A DNA stretch of 17,734 nt, taken from an uncultured bacterium. Its GTDB lineage: Bacteria > Lernaellota > Lernaellaia > Lernaellales > Lernaellaceae. Location of the stretch: assembly GCA_964534375.1 (NCBI GenBank), contig CAZHPN010000132.1, positions 1-17,734 on the forward strand, in the 5' to 3' direction. The notes under the pieces are model-generated. The model did not search any database and was not told the origin of the DNA. It was given only the letters and a program-made list of their open reading frames with translations. Of the stretch, positions 863 through 17,512 are shown in pieces (position 1 is the first letter of the stretch; the number at the start of each line of letters is the position of its first letter). The translations under genes and the position numbers were made by a program.

Positions 863-938
863 TGCCGACGCTGTTGGCAACCCTGCATTTTTCAAGTAAA
901 TGAAAGAGCCCTGGCCGAAGAGGAACGGGGAATGCGCA

Positions 939-3035
939 ATGGCGGGTGAGCGACGAGACCGCGCGAGAGACGACGACGCGCCGGTCGCCGGGCGGCGATT
1001 CGGCCCGCCCCGCTGGCTCATTCTGTTGTTTGCCGCGGCGCTCGTCGGCGGCGGCGCGCTGACGGCGAAGTACGAAGCCGACCGCTGGGTGCGGCGCCAG
1101 GCTGCCGCGCGGCTCGCGGAGGCGCTGCCGAAACTCGAAAAGCTCGCCGGCGCGCGGCTGACGACCGGCGACGCGCAATTCGGCCTGGACGGCAGCGTCG
1201 CGCTCCACGACGTGGTCATCGCGGAAACCAGCGGCGCCGCGCCGTTCGTAACCTGCGACAAGCTGGAAATCCATTATTCTCTGGATCTCAAGAACAAGAC
1301 GGCGACCGTCGACGAGATTCGCCTGCGCCGCCCGCGGCTCACATTCCAAATGGCGGCGAATGGTTCGATCGCCTGGCCCGAGCCGCTCGCCCGGCTGTTC
1401 AGCCGCGGCAAAGACAAGTCGGCGAAGACCGATGATCCATTGTCGTTGTCGCACGGCCGGGTGCGCGTCGCCGATGTCATAACGGTGCGGTTTTACGACG
1501 GCGAGGCGACGGTGACCGACGCCGGCCGTTTCGTCGCCGGCCCGCTGTTCCGGATCGGCCAGGCCCACGGCGCCGCGCGCTTCGACGCCCCGACGCGCGA
1601 GGTCACGGTCGCCGGCCAGGCCAAAGAGTTGGCCGGCGGCGGCAAGTTCGACTTTACTTTGGCGGCCGAATCGGCGCGCGCCAAGGTCACCTTCGCCTGC
1701 CGCGACCTGCCCCTGACGTCGCTGGCGCCGTGCGCGCCGCCGCTGGTGAAGCTGACGTCCGACGCGCGGCTCGACAGCGAAACGGCGGTGACGGTGGACA
1801 AGACCGGCCGGGCCTGGCGGATCGAGACCAACAGCCGCGTCGCGGGCGTCACGCTGGCGAATCCGCGGCTGGGGCCCGCCGAAATTCACAACGTCGCCGG
1901 CGCGCTACGTGGCGAACTGCAATTTGACCCGGCGGAGAAGACGATCCGCGCGCCGGAATTGGAAATCCGGCTTGGCGAAGCGCCGTTTTTTCTGCGCGAT
2001 CTGACCTTGCGGGCGTGGGGCAAAGCGCCGTTTCTGCTGCAAACGGGCGTCGGCGCGCACGCACTGCAGTTGCAAGCGCTGCTCGACGGCCTGCCGGCGG
2101 ATTTGATTCCGATCCTCAAGGGCCTCAAGGTCGAAGGCGCGGCGAACCTGCGCGCGGCGTTGATTCTGGACACGGCGGCGCCGTCGCGGAGCAATTTGGA
2201 CGTGGACGGCGAGGTGACGGATTTCCGCGTGGTTTCGGCGCCCGCGCGGTGCGACGTGCGGCAGATTAACCGCCTGGATTTTACGCACCTCGCGCGCAAG
2301 CACGGCGAACTGCAGGCGACGATTGTCGTCGGCCCGGCCAACCGCGATTTCGTGCCGCTCGCCGACCTCGGCCCCTATATCGTCGGCGCGGTGCTCACCT
2401 GCGAAGACGGCTCGTTCTTCCGCCACAACGGCTTCATGCTGCGGCACATCAACGACTCGCTGCGGCGCGACCTGCACGAAAAACGGTTCGCGCGCGGCGC
2501 CAGCACGGTGAGCATGCAACTGGTGAAGAACGTGTTTCTCAGCGAGGAAAAAACCCTCTCGCGCAAGTTGCAGGAAATGCTGCTCACTTGGTGGCTGGAA
2601 AAGGAAGTCAAGAAAGACCGCATTTTGGAAACCTATTTGAACATCATCGAATGGGGGCCGAAGATTTACGGCATCGGGCCGGCGGCGCACCACTACTTCC
2701 ATTGTTCGCCGCGGTCGGTGACGCCGATCCAGGCCGCGTTTCTGGGCAGCATTATCGCCAACCCGGTGCGCTACCACTACATGAAGCAGAAAGGCGAAAT
2801 CAGCGACGGCTGGCGCACCACCCTGGCCTTCGTCATGCAAAAGATGGTCGAGCGCGGCACGATCGAGCAGGCGCAATACGACGAGGCCGCCGCCGAGAAC
2901 TTCGACGTCTCGTTCGAGCCGCCGCCGGACGCGGACGACGACGTCGCCGCGCCGAAGAAACCCGCGGCTTGGCCGGACGGCGAACGGCAAAACGCCTCGA
3001 CGCCGCGGCCCCTGCCGCCCGATCGCGGGCGTTGA
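939..3035 (+). CDS. Monofunctional peptidoglycan transglycosylase (GT51) with N-terminal TM anchor and long beta-rich (AsmA/DUF748-like) region
   Basis: ATG at 939 follows a purine-rich SD (GAGGAACGGGG). TM segment WLILLFAAALVGGGAL. GT51 motifs are EDGSFFRHNG, GASTVSMQLVKN, RKLQE, KDRILETYLN and YGIGPAAHHYF. No transpeptidase domain follows. Confidence 0.88.
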   Translation: MAGERRDRARDDDAPVAGRRFGPPRWLILLFAAALVGGGALTAKYEADRWVRRQAAARLAEALPKLEKLAGARLTTGDAQFGLDGSVALHDVVIAETSGAAPFVTCDKLEIHYSLDLKNKTATVDEIRLRRPRLTFQMAANGSIAWPEPLARLFSRGKDKSAKTDDPLSLSHGRVRVADVITVRFYDGEATVTDAGRFVAGPLFRIGQAHGAARFDAPTREVTVAGQAKELAGGGKFDFTLAAESARAKVTFACRDLPLTSLAPCAPPLVKLTSDARLDSETAVTVDKTGRAWRIETNSRVAGVTLANPRLGPAEIHNVAGALRGELQFDPAEKTIRAPELEIRLGEAPFFLRDLTLRAWGKAPFLLQTGVGAHALQLQALLDGLPADLIPILKGLKVEGAANLRAALILDTAAPSRSNLDVDGEVTDFRVVSAPARCDVRQINRLDFTHLARKHGELQATIVVGPANRDFVPLADLGPYIVGAVLTCEDGSFFRHNGFMLRHINDSLRRDLHEKRFARGASTVSMQLVKNVFLSEEKTLSRKLQEMLLTWWLEKEVKKDRILETYLNIIEWGPKIYGIGPAAHHYFHCSPRSVTPIQAAFLGSIIANPVRYHYMKQKGEISDGWRTTLAFVMQKMVERGTIEQAQYDEAAAENFDVSFEPPPDADDDVAAPKKPAAWPDGERQNASTPRPLPPDRGR

Positions 3036-3039
3036 CCTC

Positions 3040-5094
3040 ATGACCGAGGACGCGAAGATCCGGGGCCTTCTCGAAACAAAACCCTTTCCGGAACGGCTCG
3101 TTTGGCTCCTGTTGGCGGCTCTTTGGCTGCTGGTCTTCGCCTTGCGTCTGGTCAGCTCGTTGAATGCGATCGGCGATGACCCGGGTGCGGCAAACCTCGC
3201 GTCCGGTCTGCTCGACGGCCTGGCGGCTTCGCCGTGGTCGTATCAGTACGCGCAGCTTCCCGGCACAATGGTGTTTGGCATTCTGCTCTATCCGGTCTAC
3301 GCGATATGCGGCTCTTCGCTGCTTTGGATCGAAATCTTGGGCGCGCTCTTTCTCGCCGGCGGCGTGGTCTTTTGGACGCTGGCCGTTCGCCGCGCCTGGC
3401 AGCGCGAGGTCGCGCCGATTTTCTTCTTGTGGCTGATCTTCCCGCCCCCTTTTCTGGAGGCGAACTTCCATTCGGCGAAGGCTTCGCATGTCGAGAACCT
3501 GTTTTTCTCGGGCCTATTGGTTTTTCTGTTTGTACGCCGCGGGAGCGCGGCGCCGCGATTCTGGGAAACGCTGGGCTTCAGCCTGCTGGCCGGCTTCGCC
3601 GTCTTCTTTTATCAGGGCAACATCGCGATTTGCCTGGCGCTGGCGGCAACGGCCGTCTGGCGCTGGGGGCGGAGCGGCGCCTGGCGCCTTCTCTGGCCGG
3701 CCGCGCCCGCTTTTCTGCTCGGTTACTGGCCCAGCCGCTATTCGCGGACGTTGCCATTTGCCTTCAACCCTTTTTACCACCACACCATCCCCTTCGCCGA
3801 TTGCTGGAGCAAATGGGCCGATTTTTTCTCGATCATCGCCCCGCGCTGGGCTGGCTACACCGGCTTCGGCGGCCACTGGCTGTCGCTCGCCTGGCCCCTG
3901 CTCGCCATCTTCGGCATCGCCTTCGCCGTGCGGCATATCGCCGCCGGAGAGTTGGGGCCATTTCCCGGAGATTGGCTGGCGCGCCTCCTCGCGGCCCAAT
4001 TGTTTTTCTTTTTTGTGGCGTATGGCTTTTCGGAATGGACGATTCCGCTGAATATTTCCGCGTACGGATCGTTGCGATATCTGGTCTCGATTTCCTTGTC
4101 CGTTCTCGCGTTCGCCTGCTATTTCCTTCAGCAAACAACGCGACGGTGGAAATGGCTGCTGCTCGCGCCGTTTCTGCTCGCGGGCGGCGTCAACGTCGTC
4201 CGCGGCGTGGATTTTTCCGCCGGCGGGTTGGCGCACGATCTGCACGGTTTCCTGGCCCGGCGCGGCGACGACTATGCGCAATATGTCTATTTCGATCTGC
4301 CCCGCGAGTGGAAAACTCACGCCGACGCGGCAGCGTCCATCGCCAAACTGCCGAGACGCTGGCGCGACGACGGTTATGTCAGCCTCGGGATCTGGCTGCC
4401 GCCGGAGGAACTCGCCGCCGTCGTCCAGGACGAATCGCTGCCCCCGGCCGCGCGGCGTTACCTCGCCCTCGGCGGTGCGATCCGCTGGACCCGCCACGTC
4501 AACGCCGGGGCAGAATCGGCCGATGCCCGAAATCGCCGGGCCGCCGCCCTTTCGCGGTTGAAAGACATGGACCGGCCGATCGCCCAGTCGTTCGCTGCCG
4601 GCGTCGGTCGCGGGCTTGGCGAGCAAGAGGAAGACATGATCCGAAAGGCGGCCGAGACGGCGAACTCCGGCGAACCGAACTGGGAAAATCTGAGTGCGCA
4701 GGCGGGCCGCATTCGCGACTGGCTGCCTCAACTGACCGACCGCGAGTTCATTTTGGCCGTTTTCGAAGGATTCGGCCTGTCGTCCGGCCTCGACTTCCCG
4801 TCGACAGTGGATTCCAAACGGGGGCCCGACCTCGGCGCCGAACGCCTCGAACAGGCGATCGTTCGCCAGGAGCGGTTGGCGGGCATCGCCCCCGGCGGCG
4901 AGGCGGACGAGGTCTTCCGCCAGGGGTTCACGGCCGGCCTGGCCGCGTGGATCAAGAACCGCTACAAGCGATTCGATTTTTCGCGGGGCGGCGTCGACCC
5001 GGCCGCAATGGCGTCGGCGCTGTCGGAACAGGGCGTTCGATTACGGCGTTGCGCCGGCCAAGGCGGTGAATACGATCTGGACCTTGCGAAGTAG
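3040..5094 (+). CDS. Polytopic membrane protein, putative GT-C (ArnT/PMT-like) glycosyltransferase with soluble helical C-terminal domain
   Basis: Starts 4 nt after the upstream stop. About 10 hydrophobic segments in the first ~390 aa, an acidic DD pair after TM1 (IGDDPG) and a late-loop LRY motif, followed by a soluble tail. The family assignment is an inference. Confidence 0.6.
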   Translation: MTEDAKIRGLLETKPFPERLVWLLLAALWLLVFALRLVSSLNAIGDDPGAANLASGLLDGLAASPWSYQYAQLPGTMVFGILLYPVYAICGSSLLWIEILGALFLAGGVVFWTLAVRRAWQREVAPIFFLWLIFPPPFLEANFHSAKASHVENLFFSGLLVFLFVRRGSAAPRFWETLGFSLLAGFAVFFYQGNIAICLALAATAVWRWGRSGAWRLLWPAAPAFLLGYWPSRYSRTLPFAFNPFYHHTIPFADCWSKWADFFSIIAPRWAGYTGFGGHWLSLAWPLLAIFGIAFAVRHIAAGELGPFPGDWLARLLAAQLFFFFVAYGFSEWTIPLNISAYGSLRYLVSISLSVLAFACYFLQQTTRRWKWLLLAPFLLAGGVNVVRGVDFSAGGLAHDLHGFLARRGDDYAQYVYFDLPREWKTHADAAASIAKLPRRWRDDGYVSLGIWLPPEELAAVVQDESLPPAARRYLALGGAIRWTRHVNAGAESADARNRRAAALSRLKDMDRPIAQSFAAGVGRGLGEQEEDMIRKAAETANSGEPNWENLSAQAGRIRDWLPQLTDREFILAVFEGFGLSSGLDFPSTVDSKRGPDLGAERLEQAIVRQERLAGIAPGGEADEVFRQGFTAGLAAWIKNRYKRFDFSRGGVDPAAMASALSEQGVRLRRCAGQGGEYDLDLAK

Positions 5095-5187
5095 ACCAGC
5101 CCGCGAGGGCGACGTTTGCAAATACAGCTTGACTTTGAGGCCGGTTCATCTTTTGATTCAGGCCAACGCGTTGGCAGGAGGGCGGCG

Positions 5188-5592
5188 GTGAAGAGAATCG
5201 TTTTCTTTTGTCTGCTGGTCGTCGCCGGGCTGGCGGCGGCCTGCGTTGAAGAGAAACCGGTTGCGTTGGGCAATCCGAATCCGACGGGCCATACGCTGCA
5301 GGCGGCCAACCCCGCCAAGTTGAAAATGTTTTTCGGCCGCTACGCCGGCACGTATGTGGTGGTCGACGTGGAATGCGCCAATGTGCTGCACACGTCGCCG
5401 GTCGACGGCTACCAGGCAATCTTGGCGCGGCACGAATACGGAAATTTGTACGTGCTGGTTCGCGAGGGCCTTTACCAGGAGGCGGTCTCCCAATTGAAAC
5501 CCAACCAGAAAATGCGCGTCTTTGGAATCGTGTCGTCCGCCCAGGCTGCGGCCGACAAAGAAGGCAAGATCGCCATTATCGTGGACGAGTAG
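5188..5592 (+). CDS. Lipoprotein of unknown function, possibly OB-fold
   Basis: GTG at 5188 follows AGGAGG (5176-5181). Signal MKRIVFFCLLVVAGLAAA-C ends in a lipobox-like Cys. The C-terminal LKPNQKMRVFGIV pattern resembles OB-fold strands. Confidence 0.7.
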   Translation: MKRIVFFCLLVVAGLAAACVEEKPVALGNPNPTGHTLQAANPAKLKMFFGRYAGTYVVVDVECANVLHTSPVDGYQAILARHEYGNLYVLVREGLYQEAVSQLKPNQKMRVFGIVSSAQAAADKEGKIAIIVDE

Positions 5593-5599
5593 CCGCGCC

Positions 5600-6784
<1,185 letters not shown>

Positions 6785-6826
6785 TCCGGGCGAAAATTCG
6801 GCGTTCCGAACGCCAAGAGGCCTCGT

Positions 6827-7240
6827 ATGAAAAAAGTGGAAATGGTGCGCTGTTTCGTCGTCAGCCCCGAGCCGCAGCCGGGCAATCCCGAGCACGAGGA
6901 AAAAACGGTGCGCTACGTCCCGGGCGACGTGTTTCGCCTGTGGCGTTACCTGATGGAAGATTCCAAAGGTTTCGGCGTGCAGCAGCCGGTGACTTCCTTC
7001 TGGGTCGACGAGGAAATGTACAGTCGCGAGCGGGCGCTCTACGGCGAGCACACCGTGGAAAAGGTCGTCGAGGTCAGCTTCATCTATTGCCGCGACACCG
7101 AGGTCGGCCGGCCGGTCGTCCGCTATTTTCCCCAGGCCCACTTCGAAAATATTCTCTCGTTTTTCATGAAGAACTTCAGCGACGAATATATCAAAGGCGG
7201 CATGCAGAAAACGATCGGGATGTTCGTCGAGCGGAAATGA
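6827..7240 (+). CDS. Hypothetical soluble protein (137 aa) with apparent two-fold internal repeat
   Basis: ATG preceded by AAGAGG. Codon usage and composition are protein-like, and the ORF fills the gap between rlmI and the convergent gspK. Confidence 0.75.
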   Translation: MKKVEMVRCFVVSPEPQPGNPEHEEKTVRYVPGDVFRLWRYLMEDSKGFGVQQPVTSFWVDEEMYSRERALYGEHTVEKVVEVSFIYCRDTEVGRPVVRYFPQAHFENILSFFMKNFSDEYIKGGMQKTIGMFVERK

Positions 7241-7327
7241 AGTTCTCCCGGGCGGTGCGTCCGCGCCTTTCCCTGCATCGCCGGCGGCCGTCGTCGCGCG
7301 TCGGCCGTATCCAGCGCAGACGGCGCC

Positions 7328-8488
7328 TCACCTCTTCGTCGAGACCGTCCCGTTGTTGCCGGCTCCGAATCCGCCCGCGCCGCCCACTCCCGACGAGCCG
7401 CCCAGCGGCGACGGCGTGCCCTGGCCCCCGATTTGCGCCTGCGAGGAAGCCGCGACGCCCGGCGCGACGCGGAAATAAATCACGCTGGCTTTGGACGTGG
7501 TGCGGCCGATAATGCCCAGGGCGTTCTTTTGCACGCCGCTGACCAACGCCGTGCAGGTCACGCGAAAGTAGTGGCTGGCGACGCCGAAAAACTGCACGAA
7601 GCGGCCGGCCGTCTTGGCGTCCATGCCGAGCGTCTGCAGTTGGCTGGACATGTTCTTGACCGTGAAGTAATTCGACGAGTCGGACTGGCCGAACGACGGC
7701 GTGCTGCTGCCGTCGGCCCCCTGTCGCCGCCATTGGTCGATCTTCTCGGACAAGCTGGGGTCGGCGTTGGTGTTGAGCGTCTGCAGGACGGCGGTGATGA
7801 TATTCGCATCGACGGTGTTCAGGTTCATCTTCGGATCGCCGTAGATCGACACCAACGGCTCGAGTTGGCCCCAGATTTCGTCGGTGATGCCGGTGACCAG
7901 CCGCACTTCCTGGATCGACTCGAAGCGCGAGCATTTCGCCGTCGTCGGCGGGGTCATCGACGAGTAGCCGTAGACCGAATCTTTCGCGCCCGAACCGTCC
8001 AGCGCATCCGTGCCCGCGCTGATGTAATCGACGATGGCGTTCGCCAACTTCGGATCGAGACCCTGATTGGTCAGGATTTGTTTGAGGACGTCGATGAGCG
8101 GCTGGTACGGTTTGCCGTGGTTGTCGACCATGTTGTTGAGGTTGAACCGCCCGCTTTCGTCGTTGATGTCCATCATCAACGTTTCGTCTTCGGAAATCGG
8201 AATGCCGGGCATGCCCGCCTTGCCGAGAAAATCGTACCAGTCTTCGCCGAAATAATCGACGCTGTTGTCCTGAATGTCGCGCAGCAGGATGCCCGAGGCG
8301 ACCTGCATCGCGCTGCGCAGCAGGTACTCCGCCTTGACGCCGCCGACCAGGTTGTTGGCGATGTAGAAGTTGATGCGCACGGATTGGTGCAGATCGAGAA
8401 TCATCACGGTCATCAACGTCGTGATCATCAGCACGATGATGATCGCGATGCCGCGGCGATCGCGCAGGACGCGGCCGACGCGCTTCAT
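7328..8488 (-). CDS. gspK: Type II secretion minor pseudopilin GspK
   Basis: Prepilin site RRG|IAIIIVL with no E+5, as is typical of GspK. Motifs DESGRFNLN, RFESIQEVRLVTGI and MNLNT. The ATG overlaps the gspJ stop (TGATG). Last gene of the pseudopilin cluster. Confidence 0.88.
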   Translation of the reverse strand: MKRVGRVLRDRRGIAIIIVLMITTLMTVMILDLHQSVRINFYIANNLVGGVKAEYLLRSAMQVASGILLRDIQDNSVDYFGEDWYDFLGKAGMPGIPISEDETLMMDINDESGRFNLNNMVDNHGKPYQPLIDVLKQILTNQGLDPKLANAIVDYISAGTDALDGSGAKDSVYGYSSMTPPTTAKCSRFESIQEVRLVTGITDEIWGQLEPLVSIYGDPKMNLNTVDANIITAVLQTLNTNADPSLSEKIDQWRRQGADGSSTPSFGQSDSSNYFTVKNMSSQLQTLGMDAKTAGRFVQFFGVASHYFRVTCTALVSGVQKNALGIIGRTTSKASVIYFRVAPGVAASSQAQIGGQGTPSPLGGSSGVGGAGGFGAGNNGTVSTKR

Positions 8489-9351
8489 CACAGGCCTCCG
8501 CCCGACGACGTGCTGCTGGTGGTCCCGCCGATCGTCAATTGCCGGCCGCCGCTGCCCGTGCCGCGGCTGCCGCTGCCGCTGCCGCTGCTGCCGCTGCTGC
8601 TGCCGCCCGGACTGGTGTCGTCATCCGGCTGCGACAGGTCGATCGTCGAAAGCACCAGGCGGATCTTGGTGTGAAACGCCATCGACGTGTCGCGCGGCCC
8701 GGCCACGAGGATGCCCACGTCCATCGCCAAGGGCAACGTGTTGATCATTTCCTGTTCCTGGTCGGTGACCTCGGACGGCGGCGGCGTCGCCTCGCCGTTT
8801 TGGGCGGCCGTCGACGGTTTGTTGGGATCGCGGGTGTCCCAATCCTCCAGCCATTGCTGGCCGTCGTAATAATGCAGTTCAAGCGACATGACGTTGTCCA
8901 CCAGCTCGCAAAATTCGCCGGCTTCGAGGCTCGGATCGAGCGTCGCGTCTTCGCGGCGATACAGCGTCATCAGCCCGGTGTCCGGGTTCTCGGCGACGTA
9001 GTAATTCACCATCGACTGATCGGATTCGCGGGCGTCCGGATTGTATTTCACGTGGTTGAACGACGAGAAGTGCACCTCGTCGAGCGGCAGGCCGTCGGGC
9101 GTCCGTCGCGACACGGCGTAAAAGATCGAGCGGGTGTTCGGGTTGGTGCTGATGAAGGCCGATTCGAGGTCGGCGTCCATCTTGTCCATCGCCCAGCGCG
9201 CCTGCTGGTAGATTTCGTTGCCGCTCTCCACGTCTTCCTTGGAATCGGCGGTGTAGGAGATCGAGCCGTAGATCAGGCTCATGATGACCGCGAGAATCAC
9301 GATCGCGATCATGATCTCCAGCAGCGTGAAGCCGGCGTCGCGACGTCGCAA
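8488..9351 (-). CDS. gspJ: Type II secretion minor pseudopilin GspJ
   Basis: AG|FTLLEIMIAIVIL N-methylation motif. LYRRED and YYDGQQWLEDWDT...LPLAM patterns are typical of GspJ. Likely TTG start at 9351, just after the gspI stop; the longer ORF from 9444 overlaps gspI. Confidence 0.85.
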   Translation of the reverse strand: MRRRDAGFTLLEIMIAIVILAVIMSLIYGSISYTADSKEDVESGNEIYQQARWAMDKMDADLESAFISTNPNTRSIFYAVSRRTPDGLPLDEVHFSSFNHVKYNPDARESDQSMVNYYVAENPDTGLMTLYRREDATLDPSLEAGEFCELVDNVMSLELHYYDGQQWLEDWDTRDPNKPSTAAQNGEATPPPSEVTDQEQEMINTLPLAMDVGILVAGPRDTSMAFHTKIRLVLSTIDLSQPDDDTSPGGSSSGSSGSGSGSRGTGSGGRQLTIGGTTSSTSSGGGL

Positions 9352-9352
9352 C

Positions 9353-9892
9353 TCAATGCCCCCCGGTCGTCGTCTTGCTGGTCGTCGAACCGCCGCTCGA
9401 GCCGCTGCTCGAACCGCTGCTCGAACCGCCGGCGGCGTCGTCATCGGATTTGGAGGAGTCGTCGTCGGTCAGGTCGGCAGCCTGCTGCATCTCCTTGGTG
9501 GTGGCGGCCAGGTACTGCATGATTTCCACCATTTGCTCGGTCGGCCCATCCGGCCAGAAGACCCGCACCCGGCACTCGCGGACGTAATTCCAGAAGACGT
9601 TTTCCTGCACGTCGCGTTCCCACCGGTACTCCGGATAGAGGCCCGGATAGGTATCGCTGAAATCACCCTGGTCGGAGGTGATATCCGGGAAGCCTTGCAG
9701 TTCGAGGTCGTTCATCACGGACTTGGCGAGGTTGATCGCGATCGACACGCGCCGGCTGCGCTCGGACATCTGCAAGGAGGCGCCGTGATTCTCCAGCAGT
9801 ACGACGATCACCGTCGCCAGAATCGCCATGGCGATCATGACTTCCAGCAGCGTGAAGCCCCGCGACCGGCCTATCGTCGTGGTCTTCCTCAA
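9353..9892 (-). CDS. gspI: Type II secretion minor pseudopilin GspI
   Basis: RG|FTLLEVMIAMAILA, YRWERDV and VRVFW. TTG start overlaps the gspH stop. Lies between gspH and gspJ. Confidence 0.85.
   Translation of the reverse strand: MRKTTTIGRSRGFTLLEVMIAMAILATVIVVLLENHGASLQMSERSRRVSIAINLAKSVMNDLELQGFPDITSDQGDFSDTYPGLYPEYRWERDVQENVFWNYVRECRVRVFWPDGPTEQMVEIMQYLAATTKEMQQAADLTDDDSSKSDDDAAGGSSSGSSSGSSGGSTTSKTTTGGH
9385..9432. repeat. In-frame 12-nt tandem repeats encoding the GspI SSGS tail
   Basis: TCGAACCGCCGC TCGAGCCGCTGC TCGAACCGCTGC TCGAACCGCCGG. Confidence 0.85.
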
Positions 9893-10566
9893 TTCGACGA
9901 CCCCGATGAACCGCTGGCCCCGCTGGCCCCGCCGGACCCGCCGGACCCGCCGGACCCGCTGGAACTGCTGGATTTTTTCTTTCTCCCCCAGCCCGAGCCG
10001 TTCCCGTTCGCGCTCGTCGTGCCGGTCGGTTGGATGACGTTGTTCTGCAAGTCCATGAAGTCGATTTGGCGGTCGTACACCACGACTTTGCCCGTCATCG
10101 ATTTGAACAGCAGCGTCCAGACGCGGCCGTCGCGCGTGCTGATGTGCACCACCGCCGGCTCGACGTAGCCCGTCGGATAAAAGATCACGAATTCCTCGCC
10201 GACGCTGGTCTTATCGGGGTTGTGCGGCGTGGCGACGTCCAGGAAGAAGACGCCGTCGGGCATTTGTTCGTGATCGACGAATGTGCTGGGCAGTTCCACA
10301 AACTCGCCGGTCGAACCGTTCGTCGCCAAGTAGCTCAGGTAGTATTCCTGGGAGTCGAAACTGAGGTTCAGCCGAATCGGCGTCTGGCGGATCACCGACT
10401 CGTTGAAGCAGAACTGCGCCGTGCCCGCGAACTTGCGGATTGTGCTCTTCAGGTCGACCTCGAACACGTCGTTCAGGCGCGGAATCGCGATCCCGACCAC
10501 CGTCCCGATGATGATCAGCACCACCAGGATTTCCAGGAGCGTAAAGCCGGCGGTGCGCTTGATCAT
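9889..10566 (-). CDS. gspH: Type II secretion minor pseudopilin GspH (FimT/GspH-like)
   Basis: AG|FTLLEILVVLIIIG and IFYPTGYVEPAVVHI (the GspH FxPxG motif). Lies directly after gspG. Confidence 0.83.
   Translation of the reverse strand: MIKRTAGFTLLEILVVLIIIGTVVGIAIPRLNDVFEVDLKSTIRKFAGTAQFCFNESVIRQTPIRLNLSFDSQEYYLSYLATNGSTGEFVELPSTFVDHEQMPDGVFFLDVATPHNPDKTSVGEEFVIFYPTGYVEPAVVHISTRDGRVWTLLFKSMTGKVVVYDRQIDFMDLQNNVIQPTGTTSANGNGSGWGRKKKSSSSSGSGGSGGSGGASGASGSSGSSN
9911..9960. repeat. In-frame 9-nt tandem repeats encoding the GspH SGG/SGA tail
   Basis: (CCGCTGGCC)x2 followed by (CCGCCGGAC)x3. Confidence 0.85.
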
Positions 10567-10576
10567 CAACTGGACC

Positions 10577-11035
10577 TTACGGATAGATGTTGTCGTCCGC
10601 TCCGGGCCTGCCGCTCGGACCGTTCGACCACACCTGGAAATTGTACCCGTCCTGGCACACGTAATTGTAGGGATTGCCCCACGGATCGAGCGGCAACTTG
10701 TTGTCGCGCAGGTAGCCGGTTGACCGGAAACCGGTCGCCGTGCGGCCGGTGGTCGGCGGCGCGACCAGCGCCATCAACCCCTGCCCCGAATCCGGATAGA
10801 AGCCGTTGTCGATCTTGAACATGTCCAGCGCGTCGCGGAACGTCGAAAGCTGGATTTTCGCGGCGCGCACCTTGGCCTCTTCCAGCCGGTTCAGCACGTT
10901 GACGCCAACCAACCCCGCGATCGTGCCGATAATGATCACCACCACCATGATTTCCAGCAGCGTAAAGCCGCGGGAATCGCGCGCCGCGCGCCGCGCGCCG
11001 CGCCCCAATGCCTGGCGTTTCTCGTTGTTCGACAT
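10577..11035 (-). CDS. gspG: Type II secretion major pseudopilin GspG, distal copy (G3)
   Basis: RG|FTLLEIMVVVIIIG, ALDMFKIDNGFYP, QGLMALV, LPLDPWGNPY and SNGPSGRPGADDNI. SD AAGGAG. Confidence 0.93.
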   Translation of the reverse strand: MSNNEKRQALGRGARRAARDSRGFTLLEIMVVVIIIGTIAGLVGVNVLNRLEEAKVRAAKIQLSTFRDALDMFKIDNGFYPDSGQGLMALVAPPTTGRTATGFRSTGYLRDNKLPLDPWGNPYNYVCQDGYNFQVWSNGPSGRPGADDNIYP

Positions 11036-11131
11036 TTGCCTTCTCCTTCTTCATGCCGCTAACGCCGTCCGGCGATTCTTCTTGTCGGACACCCGACAAA
11101 ACCGGCAGCGTGATTTTCCAATGGTCGAACC

Positions 11132-11572
11132 TCACGCATAAATCCTCTGGTCCGCCCCGGCCTTGCCGCCTGGGCCGTCAGACCACACCTGGAAATGGTA
11201 GCCATCCTCGCACGCGTAGCGCGGCGGATGGCCCCACGGGTCGAGCGGCAACTTGTTGTCGCGCAGGTTGTAATGGCGCAGGGGGGGCCACACGTTCGGC
11301 GGCACAACCAGCGCCATCAGCCCTTGCAGGGAATCCGGGTAGAACCCGTTGTCGCCCTTGAACGAGTCCAGCGCGTTGTCGATCCGTGAAAGCTGGGTTT
11401 TTGCCTCGTGGATCTTAGCCTCCTCCAAACGGTTCCTCACAATGACGGCGGCCAGACGGGCGACGCCGGCGACAAGGATCGCAACAAACACGGCTTTCCA
11501 CAGCGTAAACGTGCGGGAGTCGCGCCGAACCTTCTCCTGTTCTTCCTCGCCGTTCGCCATCCGCCGTCTCAT
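11132..11572 (-). CDS. Divergent GspG paralogue (G2) lacking the prepilin peptidase motif
   Basis: The globular domain is clearly GspG (ALDSFKGDNGFYPDSLQGLMALV, LRDNKLPLDPWG, FQVWSDGPGG), but the N-terminus reads DSRT-FTLWK. The ORF is intact. Start could be 11572 or 11560, with no strong SD. Confidence 0.75.
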   Translation of the reverse strand: MRRRMANGEEEQEKVRRDSRTFTLWKAVFVAILVAGVARLAAVIVRNRLEEAKIHEAKTQLSRIDNALDSFKGDNGFYPDSLQGLMALVVPPNVWPPLRHYNLRDNKLPLDPWGHPPRYACEDGYHFQVWSDGPGGKAGADQRIYA

Positions 11573-11623
11573 CCTGCGCGCCGCAGTCGTCGTCCGGCGG
11601 CGCGCGCGACTAGCGCTCGCACC

Positions 11624-12082
11624 TTACGGATAGATGTTGTCGTCGGCCCCGGGCCTGCCGCTCGGACCGTTGGACCACACCTGGAAGTTGTAGCCGTCCT
11701 GACAGACGTAGTTGTACGGATTACCCCACGGATCGAGCGGCAGCTTGTTGTCCCGCAGGTAGCCGCCGGGCCGGAAACCGCGCGTCGGGCGGCCGATGTC
11801 CGGCGCCGCGACCAGCGCCATCAACCCTTGCCCCGAATCGGGGTAAAAGCCGTTGTCGATCTTGAACATGTCCAGCGCGTCGCGAAACGTCGAAAGCTGG
11901 ATTTTCGCCGCGCGCATCTTGGCCTCTTCCAGCCGGTTCAGCACGTTGACGCCGACCAGTCCGGCGATCGTGCCGATGATGATCACGACGACCATGATCT
12001 CCAGCAGGGTAAAGCCGCGGGAGTCGCGCAGCGCGCGAACCGCGCCCCGCCCCACCTTGTTCCGTTCCTCGGTCTTCGACAT
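11624..12082 (-). CDS. gspG: Type II secretion major pseudopilin GspG, proximal copy (G1)
   Basis: C-terminal 152 aa of the listed 11624..13399 ORF. ATG at 12082 follows a strong SD (AGGAGGAGGAG). Same GspG motifs as G3. Confidence 0.93.
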   Translation of the reverse strand: MSKTEERNKVGRGAVRALRDSRGFTLLEIMVVVIIIGTIAGLVGVNVLNRLEEAKMRAAKIQLSTFRDALDMFKIDNGFYPDSGQGLMALVAAPDIGRPTRGFRPGGYLRDNKLPLDPWGNPYNYVCQDGYNFQVWSNGPSGRPGADDNIYP

Positions 12083-12105
12083 TCTCCTCCTCCTTTTGCG
12101 TGCCG

Positions 12106-13341
12106 CTAATGCAATCCGGCGGTCATATCCATGATCGGCAGCATGATGGCTATGACCGTAAACCCGACGAAGCCGGCCATGACGAGCAGCATGATCGGCT
12201 CCAAAATCGAAGTCAGTGCGTTGATCGTCGTCTTGACTTCCCCCTCGTAGGCGTCCGCGACACGGAACAGCATGTTCTCCAGTTCGCCTGTTTTCTCGCC
12301 GACGTTGATCATGTGGATCACGACCGGCGGAAACACGCCGCTGCGCTCCAGCGGTTTGCCGACGCTTTCGCCCTCTTTCACGTTTTCCCGCGCCGTCTCG
12401 ATGGCCTTCTCCAGCACCTTGTTGGATACGACGTTCCGCACGATGTCCATCGCGGCCATGATCGGCACGCCCGACTTGAGCAGCGTGCCCAGCGTCCGCG
12501 CGAAACGGCCCACCGCGATCTTCATGATCAGCGGCCCGAAAATCGGCGCCTTGAGCAGGTAGCCGTCGACGATCAGCGAGCCCTTGGGCGTCGCGCGCCA
12601 TCGGCGGAACAAGTAGAGCGCGCCGGCCAGGAACAGCGCGATCAGCCACCAATAAACGCGGATGAAGCGGCTGCCGGCCAAGAGCGCCATCGTCACGGCC
12701 GGCAGGGCCTTGTGCATGCCCGAGAAAATCGCGCTGATCTTCGGGATGACGAACGCGACCAGGTACGCGACAATGCCCGAACCGATGACGCCCATCATCA
12801 CCGGGTAAGTCATCGCGCCGCGGATCTTGTTCCGCAACTCGACCTGCGCCTCGATGAAGTCGGCCAGCCGCGCCAGCACCAGGTCCAGCGTGCCGGAATT
12901 CTCGCCGGCGTTGACCATGTTGACAAACAGCGGCGAGAAGATTTTCGGGAATTCTTCCAGGGCCTTGGCGAGGCTGGAGCCTTCGTTGACCTTGTCGCGC
13001 ACCTGGCTGAGGGTTTTCTTCAAAACCACGTCGTCGACCTGGTTGGCCAGCGCGCCGATCGCCTCGATCAGCGGAATGCCGGCGCCGGCCAGCGTCGCCA
13101 ACTGGCGGATCGTCATGGCCAGGTCGCCGAGCGCCACCTTGCCGCGCATGGCCTTGATGTCGATTTCCATCGACAGGCCCTTGCCCCGCAGGCCCTTGTC
13201 TTCGGAAACCTCGTGCAATTCGACCGGGAACAGACTGTCCGTGCGCATCTTCGCCCGCGCCGACTTGATGTTGTCGGCGTCGACGATGCCCTTGACGGTC
13301 TTGCCCGAACTGTTCAGGGCGACATAACTGAATACGGCCAC
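12106..13341 (-). CDS. gspF: Type II secretion inner-membrane platform protein GspF
   Basis: RQLATLAGAGIPL, MVNAGENSGTLDLVLARLADF, AMTYP, RFARTLGTLLKSGVPI, GEKTGELENML and LEPIM. GTG start after GAAGGGG. Confidence 0.95.
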   Translation of the reverse strand: MAVFSYVALNSSGKTVKGIVDADNIKSARAKMRTDSLFPVELHEVSEDKGLRGKGLSMEIDIKAMRGKVALGDLAMTIRQLATLAGAGIPLIEAIGALANQVDDVVLKKTLSQVRDKVNEGSSLAKALEEFPKIFSPLFVNMVNAGENSGTLDLVLARLADFIEAQVELRNKIRGAMTYPVMMGVIGSGIVAYLVAFVIPKISAIFSGMHKALPAVTMALLAGSRFIRVYWWLIALFLAGALYLFRRWRATPKGSLIVDGYLLKAPIFGPLIMKIAVGRFARTLGTLLKSGVPIMAAMDIVRNVVSNKVLEKAIETARENVKEGESVGKPLERSGVFPPVVIHMINVGEKTGELENMLFRVADAYEGEVKTTINALTSILEPIMLLVMAGFVGFTVIAIMLPIMDMTAGLH

Positions 13342-13458
13342 ACAGACCCCTTCGCGGATGCCTATCCGTTCTGACCCGCCCGCCCCGCCGACCGTTCAAC
13401 CAAACGGTCGCCGCCGGGGCAAACCCGGACTCTTCGCCCGGCGCCGGATCGGCCCAGG

Positions 13459-13487
13459 ATCATACTACGATGCCGCCTGTCCACCAA
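13459..13487 (-). promoter_or_regulatory. Putative sigma70 promoter for the gspF operon
   Basis: On the - strand, TTGGTG (13487-13482), a 17 nt spacer, then TATGAT (13464-13459). This would give a ~110 nt leader. Confidence 0.45.
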
Positions 13488-13566
13488 GGGGCGGAAAGCT
13501 GAATCGCCGGCTAAGAGGTGCTGGTCTTCTTTGAGCAGGATGCCCAGTGCGGCCGTTGGCCGCAAC

Positions 13567-13594
13567 CGAATTTCGGAATGCGGAATGCGGAATG
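13567..13594. repeat. Heptamer tandem repeat (CGGAATG)x3 plus one degenerate copy
   Basis: CGAATTT CGGAATG CGGAATG CGGAATG, read directly from the sequence. Confidence 0.85.
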
Positions 13595-13662
13595 AACGGG
13601 CGCGGAGTTTCAATCTTTCTCTCCTGGCCCAGTCGGACGACGGCCGCGTGCGGCGTCGACGA

Positions 13663-13703
13663 TCCCAGAGGTCCCATACGTCCCATAACTCCCATTATTC
13701 CCA
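13663..13703. repeat. 9-nt period tandem repeat TCCCA(N4)
   Basis: TCCCA at 13663, 13672, 13681, 13690 and 13699. Confidence 0.85.
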
Positions 13704-13809
13704 CCGCCCGCCCAACGCCGAGCGGCCGGCGCCCTATCGAAAAACCCGCCCCGCCTTGACACCGTCGCCGTCGGCATACGACAACAGGCCACGTTTGACG
13801 GAGGTGACC

Positions 13810-14727
13810 GTGGAAGTAATGGCGCTGGGAGTGGGCGGCATGATGCCGATGCCCGGCCGCTGGCTGACCAGCGTCGTTTTGTTGCACGAAGGCCAGGCGA
13901 CCCTGTTCGACTGCGGCGAGGGCACGCAGGTGCCCTTGAAAAAGAGCGGCTTCGGCGTCGGCCGCTTCGTGCGGTTCGTGCTCTCGCACCTGCACGCCGA
14001 CCACGTGACGGGCGTGCCCGGCATGCTGATGCTCCTCTCCCAGGCGGAGCCGGGCCACGACGTGGAAATTCTCGGCCCCCCGGAGGTGACGCGGTTCGTC
14101 CGCGGCGCGCGCGAGTTGCTGCGTTTTTACTTGAATTATAACTTGAAATATCGCGATCTCGACCCCGCCGGCGGCTCGCTGAAGGGCCCCGGCTTCACGC
14201 TGCGCTTTCTGCCGCTGAATCACACGACGCCGAATCTCGGCTTCGCCTACGAGGAAGATCCGCGCGCCGGCCGCTTTCACGTCGAGACGGCGCGCCGGCT
14301 CGGCGTGCCGGAAGGGCCGCTGTGGGGCCGGCTGCAACGCGGCGAAACCGTCGTTTTCGACGGCCGCCAGGTGACGCCGGCGGCGGTGCTCGGGCCGCCG
14401 CGCCGCGGCCGCAAATTCGCCTACGTGACCGACACCGGGCCGTGCCAGAACGCGATTGAATTGCTGCGCGGCGCCGACCTGGCGGTGATCGAGGGGATGT
14501 TCTGCGAGGAACACGCCGACGAAGCCGCCTCGAAGCTGCATCTGACCGCCCGGCAGGCCGCGGCGATCGTCCGCGACAGCGGCTGCACGCGCGCTCTGCT
14601 CGGCCACGTCAGCCCGCGCTATACGCACGACGAACTGCACCGCGTCGAAGACGAGGCGCGCGACGTCTGCGACCGGCTGGAACTGGTCCGGCCATTGGAG
14701 CGCATCGCGATTCCGCTGCCGGAATGA
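13810..14727 (+). CDS. rnz: Ribonuclease Z (tRNase Z)
   Basis: GTG at 13810 follows GGAGG. Motifs LGVGGMMP, FDCGEGTQ, SHLHADH (HxHxDH), GP exosite VPEGPLWGRLQRG, YVTDT, HLTA and HVSPRY. 305 aa. Confidence 0.93.
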   Translation: MEVMALGVGGMMPMPGRWLTSVVLLHEGQATLFDCGEGTQVPLKKSGFGVGRFVRFVLSHLHADHVTGVPGMLMLLSQAEPGHDVEILGPPEVTRFVRGARELLRFYLNYNLKYRDLDPAGGSLKGPGFTLRFLPLNHTTPNLGFAYEEDPRAGRFHVETARRLGVPEGPLWGRLQRGETVVFDGRQVTPAAVLGPPRRGRKFAYVTDTGPCQNAIELLRGADLAVIEGMFCEEHADEAASKLHLTARQAAAIVRDSGCTRALLGHVSPRYTHDELHRVEDEARDVCDRLELVRPLERIAIPLPE

Positions 14728-14866: not shown

Positions 14867-14895
14867 TTGCATAACGCATGCATTGGCGTTATGAT
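14867..14895 (+). promoter_or_regulatory. Sigma70 promoter of the TA operon with overlapping palindromic operator
   Basis: TTGCAT (14867-14872), 17 nt, TATGAT (14890-14895). The inverted repeat CATAACGC-N8-GCGTTATG (14870-14893) overlaps both boxes. Confidence 0.75.
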
Positions 14896-14920
14896 TTCCG
14901 CGGTTCGATTCGGAGGCGCG

Positions 14921-15178
14921 ATGTCGACGCTGCAAATTCGGGGCTTGCCGCAAGAGGTCAAAGACCGGCTCCAGGAATTGGCCCGGCGCGAGAAGCGCTC
15001 GCTGAACGCGCAGGCGGCGCTGTTGCTGACGGAGGCTGTCGACCGCGAACGCCATCGCGAGACCGCGGCTGAGTCGTTGTTGCGGGCGGATGAAATCCGC
15101 GAGGCGGCGCCGAAGCGGCGGCGCGGCGCCGACAGCCTGGCGATGCTGCATCGCGGACGGGCCGAGCGGCGTCGATGA
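14921..15178 (+). CDS. Antitoxin, FitA/Arc-like ribbon-helix-helix (VapB role)
   Basis: ATG at 14921 follows GGAGG. MSTLQIRGLPQEVKDRLQELARREKRSLN is an RHH signature. The stop overlaps the toxin start (ATGA). Confidence 0.85.
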   Translation: MSTLQIRGLPQEVKDRLQELARREKRSLNAQAALLLTEAVDRERHRETAAESLLRADEIREAAPKRRRGADSLAMLHRGRAERRR

Positions 15179-15630
15179 CCCCGGCCGCCGGCTTGACGAT
15201 CGACGCCAGCGTCGCCCTGAAACTGTTTTTCCGTGAAGAGTATTCGGATCGCGCCCGCGCGGTTTTCGCCGGGCTGGCCGGCGGCCCGCCGCGCCGCCTG
15301 CTGGCCCCTGACTTTCTGCTCGTCGAGTGCGCGAATGTGTTTCGCACGGGCGTCAAACGGCGCCTGCTGTCCGCCGGCGCCGCCCGCGAGGCGCTGGCGA
15401 TCCTGCGCGAGTTGCCGTTGCGGCTGGTTTCCACGGCCGAGTTGACGGCCGACGCGCTCGGATGGGCCCTGGCACACGATCTTTCGGTCTACGACGCCTG
15501 CTACGTCGCCGTCGCGGTTCGCTCGCAAACGAGATTGCTCACCGCGGACCAGAAACTGGCGAACAAATTGGGCGATGCGACGCCCGGCGCGCTCTGGCTC
15601 GGCGACGAAAACTTTTCGGCAGAAATCTGA
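15175..15630 (+). CDS. vapC: PIN-domain toxin, VapC family
   Basis: Acidic tetrad in IDASVALK, LVECANV, VYDACYVAVA and LLTADQKL. Translationally coupled to the antitoxin. Confidence 0.88.
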   Translation: MTPAAGLTIDASVALKLFFREEYSDRARAVFAGLAGGPPRRLLAPDFLLVECANVFRTGVKRRLLSAGAAREALAILRELPLRLVSTAELTADALGWALAHDLSVYDACYVAVAVRSQTRLLTADQKLANKLGDATPGALWLGDENFSAEI

Positions 15631-15635
15631 TCGCC

Positions 15636-15664
15636 TTGACGCAACTCGCATCGCGGCCAAGAAT
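15636..15664 (+). promoter_or_regulatory. Possible sigma70 promoter for the downstream GT-C gene
   Basis: TTGACG, 17 nt, AAGAAT. The -10 box lacks the first T. Confidence 0.35.
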
Positions 15665-15706
15665 GCGCGGGCTTCCGGATTTTGGTGCGGCCGGCAAGGA
15701 AGCGAG

Positions 15707-17512
15707 ATGGCGGAAACGCAACGCGCGACGAACATAGCCGCAACGCTCGCGGCGCCGCGAAACTGGACGACGTCGCGCGTTTTCTGGACGGCCCTGGCCG
15801 CGCTGTTCGCCGCCGGCTTGCTCCTGCCCGCGGCCGGCTCGGTCGACGACACGTTCATCACCTTTCGCTACGCCGAGAACCTCATCCGCGGCCACGGTCT
15901 GTGTTTCAATCCGGGCGAAATCATCGAAGGCTACACGAGTTTCGGCCAACTGCTGCTCGTCGCGCCGTTTGCCGCGGCCAAGTGGCTGGTCGGCCCGTGG
16001 GCCTTGGCGCTCGGGCTCGCCGCGTGGGCGGGCGTCGTCGCGCTGGCCTGGCGGCGAATGGCGCAGGAACTGGGCGGCCGCCCGCCCGCCTTCGCCGAGC
16101 GGCTCGCGCTGCTTTACCTGACGCTCTGCCTGCCCGCGGCGACGTGGGCCTGGTCGGGGATGGAGCCGGCGCTGCTCGCTTTCGCGTGGCTCGCCGCCTG
16201 GACGGCGCATCTGCGCGAATACGAGGCGAACCGCTGGCCGTGGCGTTCCGGCCTGCTGACGTTCGCGGCCGGCCTGCTGCACCCCGAGGGCGTGCTGATC
16301 GGCCTCGCCCTCGGCATTTCGTGGTTCTGGCCGTTGAAAAGCGGCAAAGCGGCCCGCGGCCTCGCCTGCGGGGCAATCGGCGGCGGCCTCTTCGCGCTGT
16401 ACTGGCTCGGGCGGTGGCGTTATTTCGGCGACTTCATGCCGAACACGTTTTACGCCAAAGTCGGCGGGCATTGGCCGTGGCGCGCCGGTCTGCAGTACGT
16501 CGTCGACGCCGCCGTTTCCGGGCTCGCGCCGCTGCTGCTCATCGGTCTGGTGGCCGCCGAGTTGAAAAACCGGCGCCGCTGGCCGCGCTGGCTGGTTCTG
16601 GCGCTGGCGATCGTGGCCGTGCTCGTCGGCTACAACGTGCTGATCGGCGGCGACTACTTCGCGTTCAATCGCTTCCTGGTTCCGGCGCTCCCGTTTCTGG
16701 TTCTCGCGACGTGGCGTTTGTGGCGCGATCGCCGGCCGGCTGCCGCGCTTGGCGCCGCGCCGCCGCCGCGTCATCCGTGGCTGCGGCCGGCGGCGGTCAT
16801 GGTTCCCGTGCTGCTCTGGTCCGCTTTCATCCCGCATCTGCAGTTCGTCGAGCATCTTTTTTTCCACCGGGCCGTCGCCGAGAACGTCAAAGCCGGCCGG
16901 ATGTTCCGGCGCAGCGTGCCGCGCGACGCGCTGGTCGCCACGATTCCCATCGGCGCCTTCGGGTATTTTTCCGAAGCGCGGATTCTCGACATGATGGGCC
17001 TGACCGACAAGCACATCGCCCGCTTGGATGTCGCGACGGGCCGCGGCGCCGCCGGCCACGAAAAATACGATTACGCCTACGTCTTCGGCCGCCGGCCGGA
17101 TATCATCATGCAATTGCCGCTGCTGTTCCCCGGCGACGAGGCCGGGATGCGCGCCTGGCTGCGGCAGAGCACGATTTCGATCCAGCAATATGCGATCTAC
17201 GACCGGCCCGAGTTGGCGCGCGATTACGAACTCTGTTGGCATTTCGTGGAGCATCGCGCCCCGACCGCCTGGCGGCGCGGCGCCGCGCCGGTCGACCTCG
17301 GCGTGTTCGCGTACCTCCGCAAAGATCACCTCGCCCAGGCGCCGTACTGGGATTGGAAACAGTTCCGGCCCGACGTGGCAGCGCTGCCGTTTCGCGAGGG
17401 GCCGAACTATATCGCGGCCAACCGGCGGCTCCTCGGCCGCTTCACGCTCGGCAATTTCCACTTCGTGGACGAGCCGCTGCGCGCCGGCCCCGCCGCGACG
17501 CCCGCCTCGTGA
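15707..17512 (+). CDS. Polytopic GT-C glycosyltransferase, AftB (arabinofuranosyltransferase)-like family
   Basis: VDDTFITFRYAENLIRGHGLCFNPGEIIEGYTS, SGME, HPEG, YFGDFMPNTFYAK, GGDY..NRFL, DMMGLTD and GHEK follow the conserved motif order of AftB-type proteins. ATG at 15707 follows AAGGA. Confidence 0.75.
   Translation: MAETQRATNIAATLAAPRNWTTSRVFWTALAALFAAGLLLPAAGSVDDTFITFRYAENLIRGHGLCFNPGEIIEGYTSFGQLLLVAPFAAAKWLVGPWALALGLAAWAGVVALAWRRMAQELGGRPPAFAERLALLYLTLCLPAATWAWSGMEPALLAFAWLAAWTAHLREYEANRWPWRSGLLTFAAGLLHPEGVLIGLALGISWFWPLKSGKAARGLACGAIGGGLFALYWLGRWRYFGDFMPNTFYAKVGGHWPWRAGLQYVVDAAVSGLAPLLLIGLVAAELKNRRRWPRWLVLALAIVAVLVGYNVLIGGDYFAFNRFLVPALPFLVLATWRLWRDRRPAAALGAAPPPRHPWLRPAAVMVPVLLWSAFIPHLQFVEHLFFHRAVAENVKAGRMFRRSVPRDALVATIPIGAFGYFSEARILDMMGLTDKHIARLDVATGRGAAGHEKYDYAYVFGRRPDIIMQLPLLFPGDEAGMRAWLRQSTISIQQYAIYDRPELARDYELCWHFVEHRAPTAWRRGAAPVDLGVFAYLRKDHLAQAPYWDWKQFRPDVAALPFREGPNYIAANRRLLGRFTLGNFHFVDEPLRAGPAATPAS

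Follow-up and report, generated by a model that had tools for sequence, protein, structure and literature searches.

The window analysed here is an entire contig (C132, 17,734 bases) of the draft genome of an uncultured Lernaellaceae bacterium (6.3 Mb in 381 contigs, 94% complete), and it carries part of a type II secretion system (T2SS) operon in which gspG, the gene for the major pseudopilin, is present in three tandem copies, here called G1, G2 and G3. Open reading frame (ORF) calls and Pfam matches gave the gene order gspF-G1-G2-G3-gspH-I-J-K on the minus strand. Comparison of the copies points to G1 and G3 as two working major pseudopilins whose mature parts differ almost exclusively in one surface loop, and to G2 as a defective copy. 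The features of the operon, in the order of transcription, are as follows.

12106..13341, minus strand: gspF, inner-membrane platform protein and first gene of the operon (Pfam T2SSF, E 4.9e-67, two repeats).
11624..12082, minus strand: G1, intact major pseudopilin GspG, 152 amino acids, with the loop AAPDIGRPTRGFRPGG (Pfam T2SSG and N_methyl).
11765..11806, minus strand: loop codons 93-106 of G1, equivalent to PulG 70-83 in the alpha3-beta1 L loop.
11573..11623, minus strand: G1-G2 spacer, with a gspH 5' remnant and a gspF 3' remnant (local alignments, scores 24 and 22).
11132..11572, minus strand: G2, fast-evolving GspG derivative, 146 amino acids (T2SSG match; Thr at -1, FTLWK for FTLLE).
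11036..11131, minus strand: G2-G3 spacer, in which a remnant of the gspH 5' start precedes one of the gspF 3' end, with a ribosome-binding site.
10577..11035, minus strand: G3, intact major pseudopilin GspG, 152 amino acids, with the Ser/Thr-rich derived loop APPTTGRTATGFRSTG (Pfam T2SSG and N_methyl).
10718..10759, minus strand: loop codons 93-106 of G3 (codon comparison, Nei-Gojobori estimates, Ser/Thr count).
9889..10569, minus strand: gspH-like minor pseudopilin with a C-terminal Ser/Gly-rich tail (N_methyl; weak TIGR01708 match).
9353..9892, minus strand: gspI-like minor pseudopilin (N_methyl and operon position).
8488..9444, minus strand: gspJ minor pseudopilin (N_methyl; T2SSJ at 26 bits, slightly below the cut-off of 28).
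7328..8491, minus strand: gspK minor pseudopilin (Pfam T2SSK_1st, E 1.6e-17).

The context is that of a gspG gene, with gspF upstream and gspH-K downstream, and with genes for the secretin, ATPase, GspC, GspL and prepilin peptidase elsewhere in the genome. These other T2SS genes are dispersed: two gspC genes, gspD and gspE lie on contig C62, the prepilin peptidase (Peptidase A24) on contig C69 and a GspL-like gene (32.6 bits) on contig C288; no match to the GspM family (Pfam PF04612) was found in the 94% complete genome. T2SSG-domain genes gave three matches in the assembled genome, all within the window. A promoter and terminator scan of 7000-13700 returned counts no higher than those from shuffled sequence, and nothing between the G copies. 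The closest named relatives of the organism, whose DNA was found in wetland metagenomes, are uncultured 'Deltaproteobacteria bacterium fen_1099'-type and Candidatus Lernaella genomes.

G1 and G3 each scored above the NCBIfam TIGR01710 equivalog cut-off of 88.85 bits (123.6 and 127.6 bits respectively), both matched PF08334 T2SSG with 91 bits (63.6 for G2; cut-off 21), and both carry a class III signal peptide, reading RG/FTLLE at the cleavage site and matching PF07963 and TIGR02532. An earlier reading of the window, made from the letters alone (the sequence-only reading), had stated that the two proteins are both 152 residues long and that nine of their 129 mature positions differ, eight of them in one stretch, and a gapless alignment confirmed this. 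The alignment contains 17 replacement codons, comprising eight in the leader (residues 3-18), M56V, and eight within the 14 residues 93-106 (from G1 to G3: A93P, D95T, I96T, P99T, T100A, R101T, P105S and G106T). The variable stretch had been placed, as 16 residues, at about 11764-11808 in G1 and 10717-10761 in G3, which agrees with the loop codons to within 2-3 bases; the eight leader differences, and the cleavage and assembly residues missing from G2, had been overlooked. None of 200,000 permutations placed at least eight of the nine changes in a 14-codon window, and the binomial probability of finding 8/9 in the loop, against a uniform expectation of 14/129, is 1.6e-7.

Synonymous differences between G1 and G3 affect 30 codons. 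For the mature part minus the loop, Nei-Gojobori estimates gave 0.44 synonymous substitutions per site (dS) and a ratio of non-synonymous to synonymous rates (dN/dS) of 0.009, from 27 synonymous changes and one non-synonymous change. The scaffold common to both proteins is, on these codon counts, under strong purifying selection, as had already been read from the synonymous changes in the identical flanks. The loop holds 11 non-synonymous changes and one synonymous change (dN 0.53). In G3, six of its eight replacements introduce Thr or Ser, and with six Ser/Thr among 14 residues the G3 loop stands at the top of 118 homologues (median 1, next 4). The G1 loop, AAPDIGRPTRGFRPGG, is the more ancestral-looking version and retains the family-typical FRPGGY.

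To place this stretch on a known structure, G1 residues 24-150 were aligned by HMMER to PulG filament chain 5wda residues 1-126 (E 9e-26); the alignment is gap-free before residue 110, and therefore through the loop, so that G1 93-106 corresponds to PulG 70-83. An AlphaFold2 model, made for G1 only from 118 sequences (mean predicted local distance difference test score, pLDDT, 88.6; an earlier model from 22 sequences had a pLDDT of 59 and was left unused), shows residues 91-123 as coil between a helix at 87-90 and a strand at 124-126. The model has the GspG fold, with a long N-terminal helix, an alpha-beta loop and a small beta sheet, and a Foldseek search with it returned the GspG, EpsG and PulG structures 3g20 (E 3e-9), 5wda (E 5e-8) and 4lw9. 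PulG of Klebsiella oxytoca and OutG of Dickeya dadantii share this family and fold, and a 2026 preprint describes residues 69-83, the 'L' region of the alpha3-beta1 loop, as one of three regions that differ between them (PMC13081927). It places the PulG/OutG differences on the accessible filament surface, with the exceptions of residues 82, 83 and 108 at subunit interfaces, and reports that PelD secretion in Dickeya was restored when PulG carried the OutG L loop and was lowered by the reciprocal swap (PMC13081927). The divergent stretch of G1 and G3 is thus the same region that differs between PulG and OutG, and its earlier assignment to the variable surface region after the long helix stands. 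The PulG and OutG loop versions belong to orthologues of two species, however, whereas the two versions here are recent paralogues in the operon of one genome; moreover, G1 and G3 are about 40% identical to PulG and are without both of the main calcium ligands found in it.

The sequence-only reading had taken the copies for a tandem array. It is also conceivable that the array is an assembly artefact, in which metagenome assembly joined several strains' versions of one gspG end to end: the draft consists of 381 contigs, and De Bruijn contigs do break in the parts common to G1 and G3. Such breaks, which fall inside long words identical in the two genes, are expected because G1 and G3 share those words. 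Against an artefact, a 945-base contig from DNA run X1 covers 10932-11876, comprising the 5' part of G3, all of G2, the 3' part of G1 and the spacers, with 0 differences. Two further X1 contigs link G3 to gspH (9937-10829) and G1 to gspF (11930-12700), and word depths were alike across the pieces (11.2, 9.6 and 8.0). DNA runs X2 and X3, from other studies, yielded the same pieces; one of the three runs is possibly the source sample. The G1 and G3 proteins were, in addition, each found on three contigs in independent records, and both are on the longest of these (94,762 bases).

The spacers bear the traces expected of a real unit duplication. About 45 nt upstream of the start codon are homologous in all three copies. 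In the G2-G3 spacer, a short gspH-start remnant is followed by a 53-column alignment (score 47) to the 3' end of gspF and a ribosome-binding site; in the G1-G2 spacer, a gspH-start remnant is fused to a gspF-end remnant at a common CCGCCGG, the short alignments here being suggestive only. Values of dS are of the same order for G1-G3 (0.37-0.44), for G2 against G1 or G3 (0.56-0.60) and for a tandem gspC pair elsewhere in the genome (0.51), and at 0.4-0.6 those within the array far exceed strain-level variation. Since the array is bridged in three DNA runs and its spacers hold diverged remnants of gspF and gspH, it is a true tandem duplication, and we give the artefact next to no credence. Two smaller observations were made in run X1. 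A joint from 10701 to 12619, with a 23-letter side and present in a single contig, was taken to come from another organism or from chance. A second, lower-depth contig of 79 bases at 10883-10961 carries five differences in the N-terminal helix region of G3, of which the three listed by position fall at third codon positions; it suggests a co-occurring strain or close relative.

G2 had been counted as the third of three tandem major pseudopilins, a claim that must be withdrawn. At the cleavage site G2 reads RT/FTLWK. It thus has Thr at -1 and Lys at +5, positions occupied by Gly and Glu in all 116 homologues; it has no PF07963 or TIGR02532 N-methylation match, and thus no recognizable class III signal peptide, and its TIGR01710 score of 68.6 bits is below the cut-off. 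In the tree its branch is 20-50 times longer (0.98, compared with 0.019 for G1 and 0.046 for G3). Its dN/dS against G1 and G3, 0.52-0.58 over the whole gene, rises to 0.83-0.91 in the N-terminal helix and falls to 0.25-0.36 in the globular part. According to a review, the last residue of the leader peptide is invariably Gly or Ala, and Glu5 bridges to the N-terminus of the neighbouring subunit (PMC10191384). G2 is predicted to be neither cleavable by prepilin peptidase nor able to dock via Glu5 and, judged by these features, is not a third major pseudopilin; either it is slowly decaying or it is kept as a derivative that stays anchored in the membrane and does not polymerise. The ribosome-binding site of G2 is degenerate. 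Its frame is open, both of its indels are in frame, and blocks such as LRDNKLPLDPWG are intact; its length is 142 residues if translation starts at the ATG aligned with that of G1, at 11560, and a near-identical variant of 142 residues (P0039) lies on another contig. The loop of G2, VPPNVWPPLRHYN, is indeed a third and shorter version, with four residues fewer.

Multiplied pilin genes are familiar from other systems. Tandem major pilin or flp paralogues occur in type IV and Tad pili, and in Neisseria pilE/pilS, a system of pilin antigenic variation, several pilin-like copies have conserved blocks around variable surface segments. The type IV and Tad examples are likewise duplications of a major-subunit gene, whereas the gene here encodes a T2SS pseudopilin, with divergence in one loop and a scaffold under near-total constraint. 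The likeness to pilE/pilS lies in the multiple copies, the variable surface segment and the one copy without a functional N-terminus, and raises the prospect that G2, and possibly G1 or G3, donates loops by recombination to an expressed copy, so that the surface would vary in the face of phages, predators or immunity. Consistent with such a cassette system, three loop versions lie between blocks conserved in every copy (DNGFYPDS...QGLMALV before, LRDNKLPLDPWG after), and the degenerate N-terminus and ribosome-binding site of G2 loosely recall silent cassettes. Unlike a pilS-type donor, however, which would be truncated and promoterless, G2 is full length, and no recombinants were seen: the contigs of the three DNA runs, in which rare variants are dropped, contained no chimeric or variant loops and matched with 0 differences, except for one X3 piece over the G3 loop with 1. 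The G1 and G3 clusters at 90% identity hold one sequence each. The 30 G3-unique and 26 G1-unique sites are interspersed, with no conversion tracts, and the flank dS of 0.44 speaks against recent homogenisation.

With both loops identical in the three DNA runs and a single sequence in each cluster, the term 'hypervariable', used for the loop in the sequence-only reading, finds no support in the population sense. Nothing supported the accompanying proposal of phage or predator evasion, which is implausible because the T2SS filament is described in the preprint as periplasmic (PMC13081927). We regard loop donation as very improbable. A diversity-generating retroelement was rejected as well: five of the 12 loop nucleotide differences are at an A of G3 and two at an A of G1, a pattern that is not adenine-restricted, and no reverse transcriptase domain was found by Pfam among the 17 window ORFs scanned.

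The three copies form one clade (support 99/97), sister to a 91-residue metagenome fragment, P0037. Seven of seven genomes of the family have one orthologue, at 61-72% identity, and the nearest relative genome (G004) has the order gspF-G-H-I-J-K with a single G. A second gspG was found in 0 of 179 other GspG-homologue loci, even at a relaxed threshold; each of these loci, some of them short, contains exactly one globular-domain GspG. The family genomes and these loci bear out the statement that T2SS operons normally have a single gspG, and the triplication is lineage-specific. Plasmid records searched by tblastn gave 669 places in 641 records, and a Ralstonia syzygii megaplasmid locus among them has one GspG within 6 kb and so offered no multi-gspG cluster for comparison. 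A literature search for multiple or paralogous gspG genes returned only eukaryotic GspG1/G2 and two bacterial mentions, and no comparison of copies was found; two other genome papers have single gspG genes. A paper on Cupriavidus metallidurans CH34 describes a chromosome 2 cluster with gspD, gspEFG and two additional gspG genes (PMC2864759), and one on Acidovorax citrulli lists a double gspG1/gspG2 mutant in its strain table (PMC9147443). Both resemble the present case in that gspG is multiplied within a genome or cluster, and they can be compared by description only; the additional copies in the window are embedded in a canonical gspF-K operon, and one is predicted to be non-cleavable. In one relative from the family (locus L185, contig C24 of G005), two adjacent T2SSG-domain proteins (5683-6366 and 6433-6891) have lipoprotein-type signal peptides (…LLAGC… and …LAAC…), with no prepilin leader and no adjoining T2SS genes, and a like tandem pair is hinted at in another relative (contig C335 of G002).

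Two further peculiarities distinguish this T2SS. At the positions of PulG D117 and D125, which the preprint names as the main calcium ligands of PulG (PMC13081927), G1 and G3 have S141 and N149, and G2 has G and R. Asp occupies these positions in 116/116 and 115/116 other homologues respectively, and the nearest relative fragment, P0037, retains GPDG...DD; all three copies thus lack the Asp pair of the calcium site. The second peculiarity concerns gspC, whose product is involved in cargo choice. On contig C62 (locus L187), two tandem T2SSC genes (3688-4566 and 4822-5700) encode proteins of 292 residues each, which align gap-free at 78% identity (dS 0.51, dN/dS 0.24), and are followed by gspD (5720-8419) and gspE (8438-10144). 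Among relatives in the family, a single strong GspC match was found in one genome (G001), and a single match, close to a contig start, in another (G004). The gspC-C-D-E genes are flanked on the minus strand by a protein with a peptide-N-glycosidase F C-terminal domain upstream (1114-3084) and a GH88 glycoside hydrolase downstream of gspE (12282-14351); it is possible that both are secreted cargo.

The difference between G1 and G3 might have no functional content. G1 and G3 could be redundant dosage duplicates in which the loop, like the leader, drifts as the least constrained part of the protein; in that case the locus would be a mere lineage-specific gene duplication. Several results weigh in this direction and against a functional reading of the loop. 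Its dN (0.53) is close to the flank dS (0.44), and the cleaved leader, with a dN/dS of 0.85 between G1 and G3, drifts at a similar rate. Positive selection, which the sequence-only reading had proposed to seek by dN/dS, was not demonstrated for the loop (11:1 non-synonymous to synonymous changes against neutral expectation, P=0.07). The most variable 14-residue window in 116 homologues is residues 92-105, and therefore tolerance accounts for part of the pattern. Two of the replacements, P105S and G106T, are at the equivalents of PulG 82 and 83, at the subunit interface, so that any effect could be on filament packing and not on cargo. The evidence for specificity comes from one preprint on distant Enterobacterales proteins about 40% identical to these. 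Contigs of RNA run X4, finally, cover gspH, the G3 loop and G2 and none covers 11648-12082 in G1, which proves neither transcription nor silence.

Tolerance by itself nevertheless appears insufficient to explain change that is confined to the loop. Of the mature sites whose family entropy reaches 2.5 bits or more (28 in all), six of the seven in the loop changed but only one of the 21 elsewhere (Fisher P=1.2e-4); the other 20 are the same in G1 and G3 despite a dS of 0.44. In close homologue pairs (n=144, at least 80% identity), the loop holds just 382 of 2235 differences (17%, a baseline rate only, as the pairs are non-independent), compared with 8/9 here (P=5.6e-6). Less variable loop positions changed as well (T100A and G106T), the shift towards Ser/Thr in six of eight changes makes G3 an outlier in its family, and a function of the loop has been demonstrated in PulG/OutG (PMC13081927). 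Because the change is loop-specific beyond tolerance and directional towards Ser/Thr, functional divergence of the G3 loop is favoured, although unproven, from these sequence comparisons; dosage with a drifting loop is a possible but rather unlikely account.

We therefore favour, with a probability of roughly 0.55, the reading that G1 and G3 are two working major pseudopilins of one T2SS that have diverged in the loop and present two surfaces with different partner or substrate preferences, G2 being defective. A unit comprising the gspF end, gspG and the gspH start was duplicated twice, giving gspF-G1-G2-G3-gspH. G1 and G3 would have remained working subunits of the same T2SS, their scaffold held by selection, as divergence proceeded almost only in the surface alpha3-beta1 L loop, with G1 keeping a family-typical version and G3 acquiring six Ser/Thr. 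The likeliest result would be two pseudopilus surfaces with differing partner or substrate preference, in mixed filaments or as alternatives, and G2 would persist as a decaying copy or as a membrane-anchored derivative that does not polymerise. The sequences themselves establish the duplication, the pattern of selection, which loop is concerned and the defects of G2; an effect of the loop change on secretion specificity, and the entry of both G1 and G3 into filaments, we infer. The proposal of a multi-pilin filament with interchangeable loops for specificity thus survives in part: the loop has a precedent for specificity in the preprint (PMC13081927), but G2 is not one of the major pseudopilins.

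A bolder version, which we offer as speculation and consider unlikely, is that one T2SS exists in two 'flavours', in which the co-duplicated GspC and the loop-variant GspG serve two cargo sets, with secretin, ATPase and minor pseudopilins in common. The Ser/Thr-rich surface would be O-glycosylated, the uncleavable G2 would cap or throttle assembly, and the scaffold would do without the calcium Asp pair. O-glycosylation of the G3 loop may be possible under the favoured reading too. Genome-wide, the Wzy_C/O-antigen-ligase family has three matches above cut-off, all of them away from the locus, which is uninformative on glycosylation. All four minor pseudopilins of the window (gspH, I, J and K; 7328-10569) have C-termini that are Ser/Gly/Thr-rich low-complexity tails of 30-45 residues, and comparable tails are found on gspI and gspJ of the relative G004 (locus L186). 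Two large polytopic membrane proteins, encoded on the plus strand of the window at 3040-5094 and 15575-17512, have no Pfam or NCBIfam match; their nearest Atlas clusters are PMT_2/ArnT-like and arabinofuranosyltransferase-like (GT-C), which are leads only, and both proteins may be relevant to the Ser/Thr-rich segments of the pseudopilins.

Elsewhere in the window, a ribbon-helix-helix antitoxin gene (FitA-like; 14867-15178, plus strand) overlaps a PIN-domain gene (15175-15630, plus strand), forming a VapBC-type pair. A 711-residue protein encoded at 900-3035 (plus strand) has a transglycosylase domain and a weak DUF748 match; AT skew is strongly negative (-0.34 to -0.39) over the adjoining 3001-4500.

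The basis of cargo choice by T2SSs has long been in question, and the preprint implicates the alpha3-beta1 loop of the major pseudopilin (PMC13081927). The loss of the calcium ligands and the retention of an open GspG frame whose product is predicted to be uncleavable offer handles on pseudopilus stability and on the control of assembly. The locus itself amounts to a natural experiment on the L loop, in which a frozen scaffold (27 silent changes, one replacement) carries two loops in a genome where gspC is also duplicated.

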